In this document: piece by piece, positions 952 to 51,139 of the stretch
Position numbering within the stretch: the first letter of the stretch is position 1
Layout of the letters: every line of letters begins with the position of its first letter
Origin: Escherichia phage BananaBelafonte
Sequence record: PP925845.1
Strand: one strand, 5' to 3'
DNA length: 51,510 nucleotides
The notes under the pieces: generated by a model
Told to the model about the DNA's origin: nothing
The model's input: only the letters and a program-made list of their open reading frames with translations
The model's database searches: none
Made by a program: the position numbers and the translations under genes

Positions 952-1223
952 ACAAGTTAAAAGTAGCCCTGGGCGCAATCCTGGTTGTTGCTGGTGTGGT
1001 CATGTTGACCGGATGCGAGAAAGCAGCGGAGGCGGAAGTGATCGCAGGTGCGGAGAATGATTTCCGTGTCTCTCGCCTGTTTACGGTTGACGGTTGCACG
1101 GCTTACCGATTCTATGACAATGGGCGTGCGATCTATTATACCGATTGCAAAGGCTCCAGCGCCTGGAAAGTGCAAAACGGCAAAGTGACGACTCACCACC
1201 AGGTGCAGACTTCCAGCGAATAG
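948..1223 (+). CDS. putative lipoprotein (signal peptide plus lipobox LTGC), possible superinfection-exclusion type
   Basis: N-terminus MNKLKVALGAILVVAGVVMLTGC has hydrophobic core and lipobox Cys; mature part has additional Cys; function inferred only by analogy to phage Cor/Llp-type lipoproteins. Confidence 0.5.
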   Translation: MNKLKVALGAILVVAGVVMLTGCEKAAEAEVIAGAENDFRVSRLFTVDGCTAYRFYDNGRAIYYTDCKGSSAWKVQNGKVTTHHQVQTSSE

Positions 1224-1269
1224 CACGAATTGCTAAAACTCAAATCGTGGGGCTTGATACTATAGCCCC
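1221..1269 (+). promoter_or_regulatory. conserved intergenic module: 20-bp element (TAGCACGAATTGCTAAAA) plus GC hairpin containing TATAG
   Basis: Element at 1221-1238 includes the TAG stop of the upstream gene; hairpin GGGGCT..AGCCCC at 1249-1269; leader CATCGAAACGAATTGAGGAAAA precedes the next ATG. Confidence 0.6.
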
Positions 1270-1294
1270 ATCGAAACGAATTGAGGAAAACGAA

Positions 1295-1540
1295 ATGCAC
1301 CACTTAAACAGAATCACAAAAGCTGAATTTATCGAGGGTGTTACAGCAGATTTTAGCGCTGAACTGGCTGAATCAGTCAACGCACGCTGTGAGGCTTTTG
1401 TTGATGCAGATGCGGCTCGCGGTCTTGCGATGTACGCTTTCGACGATTACGGCTGTGATAACGAGCTTGAAATGGCGCGAAACGCTATGCACTCAGTGCT
1501 TGACGTGGCGACCGAGGCTTTCGGTCTTGAGCTTAAATAG
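1295..1540 (+). CDS. hypothetical early protein (81 aa)
   Basis: ATG at 1295 preceded by GAGGAAAA RBS; the ORF-track start at 1145 overlaps the upstream gene and the intergenic module, so the internal start was chosen. Confidence 0.45.
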   Translation: MHHLNRITKAEFIEGVTADFSAELAESVNARCEAFVDADAARGLAMYAFDDYGCDNELEMARNAMHSVLDVATEAFGLELK

Positions 1541-1584
1541 CACGAATTGCTAAAAGGGAATCGCCTCTGACTGGTATGATTCCC
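1538..1584 (+). promoter_or_regulatory. conserved intergenic module copy
   Basis: TAGCACGAATTGCTAAAA at 1538-1555 with embedded stop codon, followed by hairpin GGGAATC..GATTCCC. Confidence 0.55.
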
Positions 1585-1610
1585 ACATCAACAAACGAGA
1601 GGGAAACTAA

Positions 1611-1898
1611 ATGCAGCAAGTCAGAATTTTATCATCGGATTATGGTTCGCTCATGCCAGCAGTCGGCAAAATTGTAAACGCAATACCATGCGGTAGCGGC
1701 TGGATGATTCCGGTTGGCGAGTCGCTCAAGCATGACCCGCATAGCGTTTGGGGTGACGAGGCGCGTTTACCAATCAGTGAGCAACCAGCGCTTTACTTCT
1801 CACGCTTTGACGTTGAGGTTGTCGAAACTAACCCGTTCGCATACTGGAATGCGATTAAATCAGGCACACACCACGTTAACAAGGAGATCGCACGATGA
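1611..1898 (+). CDS. hypothetical early protein (95 aa)
   Basis: ORF with GAGAGGGAAA RBS after a conserved intergenic module. Confidence 0.45.
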   Translation: MQQVRILSSDYGSLMPAVGKIVNAIPCGSGWMIPVGESLKHDPHSVWGDEARLPISEQPALYFSRFDVEVVETNPFAYWNAIKSGTHHVNKEIAR

Positions 1899-2437
1899 AA
1901 TTTGAACTATGGGGCAATACTTACCACTTAGGCAGTGCAACAAAAGGTGTTGTCATTGTCGATCTGGATGGAACTTTGAGCGACGGCACGCACCGCTTGC
2001 ACCTGCTACCAACAAAGGATTTGCACCTTACGGAAAGCTGGAGCGAATTTAACCGCGCAGCAAAGCATGACGCACCAATCAAAGACACAATCGCCGTGGT
2101 CAATGGCCTTTGGGTTTCCGGTTTCGCGGTTATTATCCTAACAGGCCGGAGCGATGAAGTAGAAGCGGAGTCGCACAAGTGGCTGCAAGAGCACGGCGTG
2201 AAATACGATTTTATGATCATGCGCCGCGCCTGGGACAACCGCAAAGACACGATCATCAAAGAGGAGGTGTTACGCGCTATCGGCTTGGAAAACATCGTAT
2301 GCGCCTTTGACGATTCGCCGTCTGTGATTCCACACTTCCGCAGCCTGGGGATCACAACTTACGCGGTGACGCACTACGACAAGCCGCACGCACATCTTGC
2401 AAGTCACGGCGTGGAAAAGGCAGGAGTTGCGAAATGA
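1895..2437 (+). CDS. HAD-superfamily phosphatase-like protein (possible nucleotidase or polynucleotide 3-phosphatase)
   Basis: N-terminal motif VDLDGTL (DxDxT signature of HAD hydrolases) in translation; start overlaps previous stop (ATGA). Confidence 0.5.
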   Translation: MKFELWGNTYHLGSATKGVVIVDLDGTLSDGTHRLHLLPTKDLHLTESWSEFNRAAKHDAPIKDTIAVVNGLWVSGFAVIILTGRSDEVEAESHKWLQEHGVKYDFMIMRRAWDNRKDTIIKEEVLRAIGLENIVCAFDDSPSVIPHFRSLGITTYAVTHYDKPHAHLASHGVEKAGVAK

Positions 2438-2643
2438 TTCTCAACGTAGCTTTTGCCAATCCGCGCGGCTGCAACGTCTACGGATTCCGCCAGGGCGCAC
2501 AGGTTAACGCCAGGTATGACGAGAAAGGCGTGATGTATGTCACCGCACCGAAAACAGGCGTGAAGATGCGCATTAAGGAGAATGGCGGGAGAATGTTTAT
2601 CCGGTCAATGTCAGGACAAACCCTGGCGACCTTCTGCAAATAG
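2434..2643 (+). CDS. hypothetical protein (69 aa)
   Basis: ORF overlapping upstream stop by 4 nt; ends in the TAG of a conserved module. Confidence 0.4.
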   Translation: MILNVAFANPRGCNVYGFRQGAQVNARYDEKGVMYVTAPKTGVKMRIKENGGRMFIRSMSGQTLATFCK

Positions 2644-2689
2644 CACGAATTGCTAAAACAGATTAACGGGCTTGCGGTATAGTAAGCCC
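2641..2689 (+). promoter_or_regulatory. conserved intergenic module copy
   Basis: TAGCACGAATTGCTAAAA at 2641-2658; hairpin GGGCTT..AAGCCC with TATAGT 22 bp after TTGCTA; leader CATCGAAACCAAACGAGGAAA. Confidence 0.6.
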
Positions 2690-2714
2690 ATCGAAACCAA
2701 ACGAGGAAATGAGC

Positions 2715-49776: not shown

Positions 49777-49803
49777 TGATTTTTTCCTCTCGTTTGTTGG
49801 TGT

Positions 49804-49854
49804 GGGGCTATCATATCGAATCGCCCCGAATCAGTTTTAACAAAAAGTGCTATT
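49804..49854 (-). promoter_or_regulatory. conserved intergenic module copy (minus strand)
   Basis: Minus strand: AATAGCACTTTTTGTTAAAA then hairpin GGGGCGATTCGATATGATAGCCCC, then GAGAGGAAAA leader. Confidence 0.5.
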
Positions 49855-50266
49855 TAATCCACACGCCGCTAACGATGAATCCGGTGAAGTGCGCCTGATC
49901 CACAATCGAATCGCTCGTCAGGTGTTGCGGGAAAGCGGCCTTGTATTCTGCTTTGCGGTCGGCAATCCACGCCAGGAATTCATGCTTGCGCTCAATCACA
50001 TTTCCGATCCATGCCTCGCGCCCTTTGTGAACCACGAACGCCAGAAAACGGATGTTATAGCCAGGATTCGCGATCTTCTCCAGGTGTACCAGCGTTTCGA
50101 AATTGTCCTCATTAACTTCCATCGGCACGAGCACACCGTCAGCAATTGCAGAGTTGAAGCCGTCAATGTCAAAGTTTGATTTGTGCTCACACTCGCCATT
50201 GCTCACCATAACAGCGCCGTCTTTCATGTAGTAGTAGTGACCGTTGAAAGTGTTCAGGTAACGCAT
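49850..50266 (-). CDS. hypothetical protein (138 aa)
   Basis: ATG (rc) at 50266 after GAGGATT; ORF-track start 50332 overlaps the upstream conserved module. Confidence 0.4.
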   Translation of the reverse strand: MRYLNTFNGHYYYMKDGAVMVSNGECEHKSNFDIDGFNSAIADGVLVPMEVNEDNFETLVHLEKIANPGYNIRFLAFVVHKGREAWIGNVIERKHEFLAWIADRKAEYKAAFPQHLTSDSIVDQAHFTGFIVSGVWIK

Positions 50267-50323
50267 TTTGTAATCCTCAATGTTGTTTCGATGAAAGAAT
50301 AGTACCGCATCGGCGCTGATTGG

Positions 50324-50343
50324 TTTTAACAAAAAGTGCTATT
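50324..50343 (-). promoter_or_regulatory. conserved element copy (minus strand)
   Basis: Minus strand reads AATAGCACTTTTTGTTAAAA; includes the TAG stop of gene 50339-50575. Confidence 0.5.
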
Positions 50344-50575
50344 TCGGCAATCGGATCTCGTTGTACTCGCAGAACTCGATCACGTATGCACATTCGTTGG
50401 GGCGCTCCTGGCCTTTCATCACCTCGCATCCTTGGTTAAACAGGTTGCAGTGCTGACACAACCATCCGCCGCAATGCTCCTCAACAATGCTTGAGCCGTC
50501 ACACCTCCCGCCGCCGAATCTATGCGGGAAGTCATACGCACGGCAATTGCAAGTCACCTGGTAACGCCTGGCCAT
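50339..50575 (-). CDS. Cys-rich small protein (78 aa), possible zinc-binding
   Basis: Nine Cys including CNC, CGGWLCQHC; stop TAG embedded in conserved module. Confidence 0.4.
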   Translation of the reverse strand: MARRYQVTCNCRAYDFPHRFGGGRCDGSSIVEEHCGGWLCQHCNLFNQGCEVMKGQERPNECAYVIEFCEYNEIRLPK

Positions 50576-50769
50576 TATTCCGACTCCAGCACGATCACAG
50601 GCTCCAGGCGCTCTAACACAACTTTGAAGTCTGCAAAGAACGTTGGGCGCTTTTCGGTCAAGTCAACGAAAGTATCGGTCGCCAGGCTTGCGCGATCACC
50701 TTCATAGCACACAACACGCTTTCCGGTTGCGCGGCTGATAGCCACCACGCGATAAGTGTTTTTGCTCAT
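50575..50769 (-). CDS. hypothetical protein (64 aa)
   Basis: ORF coupled to neighbours. Confidence 0.4.
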   Translation of the reverse strand: MSKNTYRVVAISRATGKRVVCYEGDRASLATDTFVDLTEKRPTFFADFKVVLERLEPVIVLESE

Positions 50770-50772
50770 ATT

Positions 50773-51051
50773 TTATTCTTCCTCTTTCAGTGCAGCGGCC
50801 AGGAACTCAATCACCAGGCGCAGATGCTTTTCGTTTTTGATAGTGGCTGGCAATTCTTCCTTAACTTCTTGTGACAGGTACACGTTGCCATTCCAGGTAA
50901 GGGAGCCGTCAGAGTTGACCAGGTAAGAGCAGCACCATTCGCACGCGTCAACTTCGGAAATCAGCAGCAGATCACGATCTTCATCATTCCAGATTTCCAG
51001 GTCAAAGCCGCGTTTCTGTGCAAAGTTGATAGTGGTCTTAGTCAGTTTCAT
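50773..51051 (-). CDS. hypothetical acidic protein (92 aa), first gene of right-end leftward operon
   Basis: ORF with GGAG RBS downstream of conserved module; net acidic with C-terminal EEE. Confidence 0.4.
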   Translation of the reverse strand: MKLTKTTINFAQKRGFDLEIWNDEDRDLLLISEVDACEWCCSYLVNSDGSLTWNGNVYLSQEVKEELPATIKNEKHLRLVIEFLAAALKEEE

Positions 51052-51061
51052 TTGGTCAATC

Positions 51062-51139
51062 TCCGTGATTGGTTCGTTTCGTTTCGATGGGATAACTATA
51101 CCCGATCCGATCCGGTCTGTTTTAGCAAAAAGTGCTATT
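51062..51139 (-). promoter_or_regulatory. conserved module upstream of first right-end minus-strand gene
   Basis: Minus strand: AATAGCACTTTTTGCTAAAA, 22 bp, TATAGT, leader CATCGAAACGAAACGAA..GGAG, ATG at 51051; no upstream gene, so the element is not merely a gene end. Confidence 0.55.

Follow-up and report, generated by a model that had tools for sequence, protein, structure and literature searches.

The question raised here is what is done by a 20-bp element repeated at gene boundaries throughout the genome of Escherichia phage BananaBelafonte (sequence record PP925845.1), and which protein reads it. The window, meaning the whole stretch of 51,510 nucleotides that was analysed, is a complete or near-complete genome (51.5 kb) of a T1-like siphophage (Drexlerviridae). 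An original prediction had left the element, hereafter called the box, as a possible non-canonical phage promoter, regulator binding site or RNA processing and stability element. The results favoured a combination of the first two, with the hairpin beside the box plausibly an element of the third kind; the term non-canonical did not stand, and activator-type sigma70 promoter describes the modules better. On balance, and judging from sequence, the repeat appears to be an activator-dependent class II marbox-type sigma70 promoter with the host proteins MarA, SoxS and Rob as its readers and with a stop codon and an insulating hairpin fused to it. Some twenty phage genes would then probably be expressed from promoters that rely on a regulator of the host.

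A search for AATAGCAC-N5-GYTAAAA with up to two mismatches found 23 matches between 1219 and 51139, counting both strands, where 0.20 were expected, and scoring against the marbox consensus added a 24th copy at 29580-29599(-); the number had been predicted as at least 22. The box is a 20-bp asymmetric element of the form (A)ATAGCAC-[GAA/TTT]-TTG(C/T)TAAAAC. Positions 2-4 (TAG) were the in-frame stop codon of an upstream open reading frame (ORF) of at least 50 codons in 14 of the 24 copies, and a TAA stop was abutted or contained by three further boxes, in agreement with the claim that the upstream gene usually ends within the element.

The repeat is real and was described previously. The 2024 re-annotation of phage TLS reported a 21-nt direct repeat, aaATAGCACnnnTTGnTAAAA, in 18 intergenic copies that were oriented with transcription, lay about 76 nt before start codons and fell into A, T and G subgroups, and the same repeat was noted in T1, Rtp and Rogue1 (PMC11447400). 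Its authors, who reported just three sigma70-like promoters and neither an RNA polymerase nor a sigma factor gene, suggested stoperators, enhancer sites or UP elements and listed the function among the open questions on T1-like phages (PMC11447400). The TLS repeat is the same element as the box of the window, sharing its intergenic position, its orientation with transcription, the distance of about 76 nt to the ATG and the A, T and G groups. What is new here is the marbox identification; the marbox match, the fixed distance to the -10, the start-site logo and the hairpin statistics are absent from the TLS paper and are added by this analysis. A literature search found no transcription start maps of T1-like phages, no link of these repeats to MarA, SoxS or Rob, and no virulent phage that uses a host stress activator as a general promoter specificity factor.

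The distance between the box and a -10-like hexamer was nearly constant. The hexamer lay 18 bp after the 20-mer in 18 of the 24 copies, which is the 22 bp after TTGCTA that had been predicted, 17 bp after it in three, and was missing from three. A hexamer at 17-18 bp in 21/24 boxes compares with a background of 2.8% (binomial P 5.6e-30), and all 21 of these boxes face forward. The hexamers included TATAGT, TAAAGT, TATGAT and CATAAT. A set of 414 distinct modules, taken from T1, the window and IMG/VR contigs, showed the same geometry: TANNNT lay exactly 18 bp from the box in 251 modules, while 20 modules had it at 17 bp and 18 at 19 bp. A logo aligned on the hexamer contained G-14 (85%, a partial extended -10), T-12, A-11, T-7, C-1 (71%) and A+1 (84%), followed after the start by TCGAAAC and then by a purine-rich Shine-Dalgarno sequence. 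The logo also bore out the conserved leader, CATCGAAACGA...GAGG, and the predicted 5' untranslated region is about 25 nt long. The 76 nt reported for TLS are the sum of the parts of the dissected module (20 + 18 + 6 + 6 + ~25).

The place of the -35 was occupied by TAAAAC, and a TTGACA-like hexamer was not seen in the logo 17 bp upstream of the -10. Canonical -35/-10 pairs were not enriched in the window (17, 18 and 6 found, against 19.7, 19.1 and 13.3 expected from shuffled sequence), which accords with the few promoters found by the TLS authors. The view that a 22-bp spacing excludes a sigma70 -35/-10 pair was upheld. Class II promoters of MarA, SoxS and Rob have a forward site over the -35, centred near -41, and no recognisable -35 (PMC10268841), and the marbox of micF is centred at -41.5 (PMC9638938). 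TTGCTA would be the second recognition element of a 20-bp marbox-type site near -41 and not a -35, which would make the modules activator-type sigma70 promoters with an extended -10 and not a new class. It is very likely that they are sigma70 promoters in which an activator site takes over from the -35.

Whole-window comparison placed Klebsiella phage vB_KM5a1-KLB26 as the closest record (95.5% identity across the structural region), followed by Salmonella phage PMBT35 (~82%) and many further relatives from E. coli, Klebsiella, Salmonella and Shigella. The same element occurred at orthologous places in T1 (20 copies), in Webervirus Shelby (13 copies) and in Rogunavirinae Sd1 (42.6% GC), so the motif is conserved at orthologous positions in related phages as the original prediction would have it. 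The box was unchanged across phages of 42-59% GC whose helicases are only 48-63% identical, and it was absent from a Vibrio myophage with a related helicase/replication module. Alignments of orthologous modules showed far stronger conservation of the box and the -10 than of the sequence around them: identities for the box, the -10, the spacer and the flanking or upstream coding sequence were 94%, 90%, 80% and 80-83% against PMBT35, 87.5%, 75%, 70% and 66-73% against T1, and 90%, 82%, 65% and 65-67% against Shelby, respectively. Box positions 8-10 were bimodal in the window. GAA prevailed in the rightward early arm (1220-4827) and TTT in the leftward arm (47740-51138) and the replication region, and a few copies had AAA or TAA; this could reflect local gene conversion or classes that differ in affinity for the activator.

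The marbox, the site of MarA, SoxS and Rob, has the consensus AYnGCACnnWnnRYYAAAY (PMC3709825), with GCAC as its A site and CAAA as its B site (PMC9638938). Over the 14 informative positions of this consensus, six boxes of the window matched at 14/14 and 18 at 13/14, where 0.01 and 0.91 were expected from simulated sequences of the same composition. The GCAC A-box and the YAAA B-box stood 7 bp apart, as in the marbox. Variation among 322-414 distinct copies from related phages fell on the degenerate positions of the consensus: position 2 was T or C, positions 8-10 were variable (position 10 only A or T) and position 14 was C or T. Of the two sites for which crystal structures were solved, micF and mar, the box corresponds to the A-box of the former (ACAGCAC) joined to the B-box of the latter (TTTTGCTAAAT or TTGCTAAA). 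According to a simulation paper, the A-box is the chief determinant of affinity and T16 and G17 of mar are contacted by the second helix-turn-helix (HTH); these two bases are box positions 12 and 13, which were conserved at 95-98% in the phage copies.

The phage modules share with the host class II promoters of micF, inaA, sodA and fumC (measured values in Table 1), which belong to the mar/sox/rob regulon of E. coli and Salmonella, a 20-bp forward box that replaces the -35 and a distance of 17-18 bp to a sigma70 -10. The box of fumC stands straight after the terminator of the upstream gene, 3 nt past the fumA T-run, and the order of terminator, box and -10 is that of the phage cassettes. The phage modules differ from the host promoters in their 24 near-consensus copies within 51.5 kb, in the fusion of the box to the upstream stop, in a selected GC-rich hairpin in the spacer and discriminator, in a conserved initial transcribed sequence and leader, and in the fixed A3, T11, T12 and A19.

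The proposed explanation is as follows. The box would be a high-affinity marbox for the paralogous, monomeric, two-HTH proteins MarA, SoxS and Rob (RamA in Klebsiella and Salmonella), with GCAC as recognition element 1 and TTGYTAAA as recognition element 2. It would lie forward at about -50 to -31 in place of the -35, its TAG usually ending the upstream gene, and would be followed by the 18-bp spacer and a sigma70 -10 that often has G-14. Transcription would start at the A of CATCGAAAC, and the resulting leader, about 25 nt long, A-rich and unstructured, would contain a GAGG Shine-Dalgarno sequence. The host sigma70 RNA polymerase would initiate, with the box-bound host activator touching the carboxy-terminal domain of the alpha subunit (alpha-CTD) and sigma region 4 as at micF, and the extended -10 would give some basal activity without the activator. 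The hairpin between the box and +1 would stop, pause or 3'-stabilise the upstream RNA and would insulate the cassettes from one another.

The GC-rich hairpins that had been noticed after the box, some of them with GAAA loops, were present in the modules of the window, and selection on them was judged by folding z-scores with controls, since the hairpin has no fixed register. From the end of the box to +10, 322 related-phage modules gave a mean folding z of -2.9, with 66% below -2, whereas 42-nt windows drawn at random from these genomes gave a mean z of -0.12 and 5% below -2. No such folding was seen in the four class II promoters of the host (micF, sodA, inaA and fumC). The spacer sequence changes freely yet folds, and column-wise covariation was weak (excess pairing of at most 0.15 per column). 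Two layouts were found. In about 30% of modules the hairpin lies fully within the spacer, often with a GAAA tetraloop and then a T-rich -10, and some of these hairpins are annotated as terminators in the T1 record. In more than half of modules the loop contains the -10, and the 3' arm spans about -9 to -1. The predicted start is at or past the 3' arm in both layouts, so only RNA that reads through from the upstream gene can fold the hairpin. The hairpin of the primase module has a T-run behind it and forms a plain terminator that encloses the -10. The hairpin probably ends, pauses or 3'-protects upstream transcripts and thereby insulates the cassettes.

As to the reader of the box, E. coli K-12, a host of T1 and of the BASEL relatives, has the genes marA, soxS and rob, and a six-frame search of the window gave no homologue of the three proteins (best E 0.07). 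Pfam and PHROG scans of about 50 non-structural (early and middle) ORFs showed no RNA polymerase, no sigma factor, no recognisable immunity repressor or integrase, and no DNA-binding domain beyond two HTH proteins. Laganenka et al. used green fluorescent protein reporters in phage-free E. coli and showed that the T1 protein Pir is an activator of Phol and Pdam and a repressor of Ppir and PrecE, that Porf65 does not respond to it, and that the Porf65 reporter is active in uninfected cells (PMC6737242). When these promoters were mapped on T1, Porf65 was a canonical box module (box, 18 bp, TATGAT), PrecE was a canonical promoter (TTGACT-16-TATAAT) with no box, Phol held only a decayed box, and Ppir was a canonical promoter with the helicase box reversed just downstream of its start. 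The published Porf65 primer starts TTAAAACGAATAGCACGAATTGC, 9 nt upstream of the box; together with the activity in phage-free cells, this indicates that the minimal module works as a promoter without a phage protein.

Further evidence came from Salmonella phage Lumpael (Murrayvirus, NC_048113.1, 59% GC), which lies outside Drexlerviridae and combines a T1-type replication module with P22-like ejection proteins. Its genome contained six boxes, including the exact AATAGCACGAATTGCTAAAAC, followed by 18 bp and TATAGT or TAATAT, and Pir, Orf65-family and MarA-like genes were not detected in it. The promoter type thus travels with replication and early genes across phage families. A conserved host reader would more readily account for a box that has not changed although the phage proteins have diverged to 50-60% identity.

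Several observations weigh against a host reader. Unstressed cells contain little MarA or SoxS, and Rob shows little activity unless inducers are present. The box allows less variation than the host consensus, with A at positions -1 and 0 and with A3, T11, T12 and A19 fixed; a role as stop codon explains A3 and leaves T11, A19 and the As upstream unaccounted for. The partial dyad at its core, TAGCA-N5-TGCTA, could suit a dimeric protein. Three boxes (10319, 14920 and 24587) lack a -10, and two boxes in the late operon face backward. A Keio screen with the TLS-like phage LL5 returned only receptor, lipopolysaccharide and chaperone genes and no rob, marA or soxS (PMC7229145); no single activator is therefore essential for plating, and redundancy or the extended -10 could hide a dependence. 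T1 Orf65 raises Porf65 and represses Ppir (PMC6737242), effects that match those expected of box occupancy at the two promoters, so a phage factor acts at or through the modules.

The strictness of the box, its half-sites one helical turn apart, the silence of the Keio screen and the effects of Orf65 on a minimal module and on Ppir, where the box lies just past the start, would also suit a reader encoded by the phage, which we consider unlikely. Such a protein, whether of the Orf65 family, a Pir-like HTH protein or an unrecognised small early protein, would activate promoters without a -35 in the manner of Mor/C or MotA, or would shut them off, and the likeness to the marbox would be convergent or coincidental. 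Middle and late promoters of Mu (Mor/C) and middle promoters of T4 (MotA) have a -10 and an activator site for the -35, and their activators are phage-encoded; the box differs from these sites in sequence and position, and no homologues were found among the ORFs scanned. A T4-type middle promoter was rejected, the MotA box (TGCTT) being centred at -30, 11-13 bp from the -10, against a box spacing of 22 bp, and no MotA or AsiA homologue was found by Pfam or PHROGs in the same ORFs. A dimeric phage reader is hard to reconcile with the TGTTA and AGCTA variants, which break the dyad, and with the invariance of the asymmetric positions C7, T11 and A17-19, and any phage reader with the activity of the minimal module in phage-free cells. 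Lumpael, which keeps six boxes without detected genes for Pir, the Orf65 family or a MarA-like protein, speaks against both Pir and the Orf65 family.

Both HTH proteins of the window, which the original prediction had put forward for binding assays, are poor candidates. Pir is unlikely to read the box, because Porf65 is independent of it and it regulates PrecE and Phol, which lack a proper box; its recognition helix also differs among phages with identical boxes. The second protein, 43036-44157(+), belongs to a DNA-repair exonuclease family (PHROG 704) and was set aside as a sigma-like factor on that ground. Its N-terminal HTH scored against Sigma70_r4_2 with E 6.7e-6, just above the Pfam cut-off, and the protein is an HTH-nuclease fusion. 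A PDB sequence search with both HTH proteins (38003-38446 and 43036-44157) gave nothing below E 0.2.

Profile searches showed Orf65-family genes in T1 (4418-4864), Shelby (4312-4800), PMBT35 and the window, in a long form of 148-162 aa and a short form of 81-93 aa. The acidic C-terminus of the family is invariant and ends in ISCW. T1 Orf65 had no Pfam domain. An AlphaFold model of the window protein (5068-5346) built with 43 sequences reached a predicted local distance difference test score (pLDDT) of 89, compared with 59 with five sequences, and was a four-helix bundle without an HTH and without an informative fold match. Orf65 looks more like a co-factor, perhaps one acting at box promoters, than like a DNA-binding protein.

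Stoperators of temperate phages are bound by the phage immunity repressor, which blocks elongation. The boxes resemble those of L5 and cluster A in being short, asymmetric, present in many copies, oriented with transcription and placed at gene ends near stop codons, a likeness noted by the TLS authors (PMC11447400). They could accordingly be roadblocks at which a bound protein halts or silences the elongating polymerase, as the L5 repressor does, and the three boxes without a -10 and the repression of Ppir with a box downstream of its start would agree with this. We give the roadblock very little credence: in 21/24 boxes a conserved -10 follows at a constant 17-18 bp, together with a start and a leader that are also conserved, an arrangement that a roadblock would not require; the minimal module drives a reporter; and no immunity repressor or integrase was recognisable in the ORFs scanned.

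It is similarly improbable that the box acts in RNA, as an intercistronic processing, termination or stability signal formed with the hairpin, in which UAGCA-N5-UGYUA would pair. The box does lie in the upstream 3' untranslated region, next to a strongly selected hairpin that the T1 record marks in some cases as a terminator, and C or T at position 14 fits G-C or G-U pairing. However, no compensatory changes were seen, the left arm never varies, the positions that would be unpaired are invariant, and the AAA and AGCTA variants lose the pairing. A role in RNA also leaves the strict distance to the -10 and the match to a DNA-binding consensus unexplained, and an Rfam scan of the window gave no family match.

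The PeSLs of T4-like phages are cassettes of a promoter and a stem-loop at the borders of small early ORFs in variable regions and are thought to mediate modular exchange (PMC4122927). The phage modules are alike in being repeated cassettes of this kind at small-ORF borders, and differ in that a PeSL has a canonical -35/N17/-10, whereas the T1-like module has no -35, an activator-type box and a hairpin inside the promoter. The repeats could likewise be mainly recombination sites for cassette shuffling, with promoter function secondary. In the variable arms they border small ORFs, the early arm aligns only in part to the 95%-identical KLB26, and the in-frame TAG of the box would keep exchanged cassettes terminated. 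Recombination as the main role has a very low probability all the same, since it explains neither the sequence of the box, its marbox match and its -10 spacing nor the fixed orthologous positions in the core region. Alignment break-points were compared with the modules, but the 66 ends of high-scoring segment pairs are too few data points. PeSL-like exchange of cassettes is compatible with a marbox-type promoter and may well be a by-product of it.

A promoter for sigma54 or for another alternative or phage sigma factor is virtually excluded, as the original prediction had held for sigma54 from the half-site spacing: the likeness to TGGCAC-N5-TTGCW is superficial, sigma54 has GG at -24 and GC at -12 with exactly 10 nt between them and the box has AG in place of the obligatory GG with 8 nt between (AG-N8-GC), a sigma54 start would lie within the spacer and leave the conserved -10 and start site without an explanation, and no sigma factor or enhancer-binding protein was found in the ORFs scanned. 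Other known sites were rejected as well. The SlyA site TTAGCAAGCTAA shares the half-sites but spaces them by 2 nt and not by 7 nt; sites of sigma32, sigma28, NtrC, CRP, FNR and lambda cII do not fit the box; and a UP element was ruled out by the invariant GCAC and by the position of the box at the -35.

A wider proposal, which we put forward as doubtful, is that T1-like phages, and other enterobacterial phages with their replication module such as Murrayvirus, wire nearly all of their early and middle transcription to the host MarA/SoxS/Rob/RamA regulon. Phage development might then be tuned by the chemical state of the host (Rob would respond to bile salts and fatty acids, MarA to salicylate and antibiotics, SoxS to oxidants), and the four-helix co-factor of the Orf65 family might boost box-dependent initiation. 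The 24 high-affinity boxes of each replicating genome might titrate activators away from the efflux and porin response, and the reverse and -10-less boxes of the late region might be activator-dependent antisense promoters or roadblocks that delay late genes.

The coordinates of the predicted modules, the remaining boxes, the two candidate phage proteins and the measured host promoters are shown in Table 1.

Table 1. Box modules, orphan boxes and related genes in the window, with host class II promoters of E. coli MG1655 for comparison
Feature	Coordinates	Strand	Box	Spacing (bp)	-10 hexamer	Start and ATG	Remarks
Promoter module	1220..1297	+	1220-1239, ATAGCACGAATTGCTAAAAC		TACTAT 1258-1263, with TG	start A1270; ATG 1295	box TAG is the stop of ORF 948-1223
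Promoter module	1537..1613	+	1537-1556		TATGAT 1575-1580, with TG	start ~1587; ATG 1611	TAG is the upstream stop
Promoter module	2640..2717	+	2640-2659		TATAGT 2678-2683	start ~2690; ATG 2709 or 2715	-10 in hairpin loop
Promoter module	3181..3258	+	3181-3200 (14/14)		TAAAGT 3219-3224, with TG	start ~3231; ATG 3256	dNMP kinase-like gene
Promoter module	3831..3909	+	3831-3850		TATAGT 3869-3874	start ~3881; ATG 3907	
Promoter module	4827..4909	+	4827-4846		TATAGT 4865-4870, with TG	ATG 4907	operon with Orf65-family gene 5068-5346
Promoter module	6145..6223	+	6145-6164		TAAAGT 6183-6188, with TG	start ~6195; ATG 6221	
Box without -10	10319..10371	+	10319-10338				over terminase large subunit stop; intrinsic terminator 10351-10371 next
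Orphan box	14920..14939	-	14920-14939 (14/14)		none		between scaffold and major capsid genes, against late operon
Reverse box	18623..18673	-	18654-18673	18	TAGAGT 18630-18635, with TG		faces major tail gene terminator
Orphan box	24587..24606	+	24587-24606		none	ATG 24609	over ribosome-binding site of tail fibre gene; after terminator 24536-24554
Promoter module	29525..29599	-	29580-29599, TCAGCACTTTTTGCTAAACC	17	TATAGT 29557-29562	ATG 29527	outside the pattern of the original prediction
Promoter module	31092..31172	+	31092-31111 (14/14)	17	TATAAT 31129-31134, with TG	ATG 31170	-10 in hairpin loop; Erf-type recombinase
Promoter module	37943..38019	-	38000-38019 (14/14)	17	TATCAT 37977-37982	ATG 37945	box holds TAA stop of Pir-like gene; primase
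Promoter module	38460..38538	+	38460-38479		TAGTAT 38498-38503, with TG	ATG 38536	helicase
Promoter module	40949..41026	+	40949-40968		TATATT 40987-40992, with TG	ATG 41024	hairpin in spacer
Promoter module	41278..41355	+	41278-41297		CATAAT 41316-41321, with TG	start A41328; ATG 41353	GAAA-loop hairpin in spacer; Dam methylase
Promoter module	42433..42510	+	42433-42452		CATAAT 42471-42476	ATG 42508	GAAA-loop hairpin
Box, spacer and -10	42761..42811	+	42761-42780 (14/14)	18	TAGTAT 42799-42804, with TG		start codon uncertain; T1 counterpart 40308
Promoter module	47665..47740	-	47721-47740		TATTAT 47697-47702	ATG 47667	-10 in hairpin loop; second helicase
Promoter module	48378..48455	-	48436-48455 (14/14)		CATAAT 48412-48417, with TG	ATG 48380	hairpin in spacer
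Promoter module	49774..49853	-	49834-49853		TATGAT 49810-49815	ATG 49776	
Promoter module	50264..50342	-	50323-50342		TACTAT 50299-50304	ATG 50266	
Promoter module	51049..51138	-	51119-51138		TATAGT 51095-51100	ATG 51051	first of leftward early operon
Orf65 family, short form, 92 aa	5068..5346	+					profile similarity to T1 Orf65
Pir-like (T1 orf23 homologue), Cro/MerR-like HTH	38003..38446	-					rival box reader, unlikely
micF, host			ACAGCACTGAATGTCAAAAC	18	TAGAAT		MG1655, measured
sodA, host			ACGGCATTGATAATCATTTT	18	TATAAT		MG1655, measured
inaA, host			ACGACACGTTTCATTAAGAT	18	TATAGT		MG1655, measured
fumC, host			ATGGCACGAAAGACCAAACA	17	AATAAT		MG1655, measured

Some of the boxes outside the regular promoter modules were also conserved. 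The reverse box at 14920-14939(-) had zero mismatches in KLB26 and PMBT35, and T1 has its own reverse box, 15086(-), at the scaffold-capsid junction. The box at 18654-18673(-) was almost invariant in KLB26, PMBT35 and T1 (18850(-)), and its module could be an antisense promoter over the major tail gene. T1 retains a marbox at 25021 as the counterpart of 24587-24606, though the sequence differs. The helicase box at 38460-38479 is reverse-oriented with respect to the divergent promoter of the Pir-like gene and lies downstream of it.

The gene order of the window is that of T1: a rightward early arm made up of small ORFs (1-8.2 kb) precedes the genes for packaging, head and tail (8.2-28 kb) and those for recombination, after which come a divergent primase/regulator and helicase unit at about 38 kb, the Dam and lysis genes and a leftward early arm (45.6-51.1 kb). 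Two perfectly symmetric hairpins with A-run and T-run flanks, 28186-28209 and 32318-32339, scored as terminators on both strands and sit at meeting points of convergent transcription units. The region 29600-30000, about 400 bp of non-coding sequence (~43% GC) with (TA)n runs, is bounded by the leftward box module (29580-29599) and by a canonical promoter at 29975-30002, and may be a replication origin or control region. This promoter, TTGACT-16-TAGAAT ahead of the exonuclease VIII gene, is the sole convincing intergenic canonical promoter, and its T1 equivalent is the TTGACT-16-TATAAT of PrecE. The last stretch, 51150-51510 (about 360 bp), lies upstream of the first leftward module and holds no convincing gene; its final 110 bp are very AT-rich, and it is probably the junction at which the divergent early arms meet. 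Some 20 GenBank records under the name Campylobacter phage (such as MG065679 and MG065669) were T1-like, with 77-80% protein identity to the phage of the window, and their host labels are probably wrong.

T1-like phages are among the commonest coliphages and Klebsiella phages, occur as contaminants of laboratories and fermentations, and are candidates for phage therapy. For these phages, the marbox reading predicts where about 20 transcription units start in each genome. Should it hold, phage expression would be tied to the regulon of multidrug efflux, porins and oxidative-stress defence; salicylate, bile and redox drugs would raise early phage expression, which bears on combinations of phages with antibiotics; replicating phage DNA could titrate host activators; and the modules would offer compact, insulated, activator-responsive promoter cassettes for engineering.

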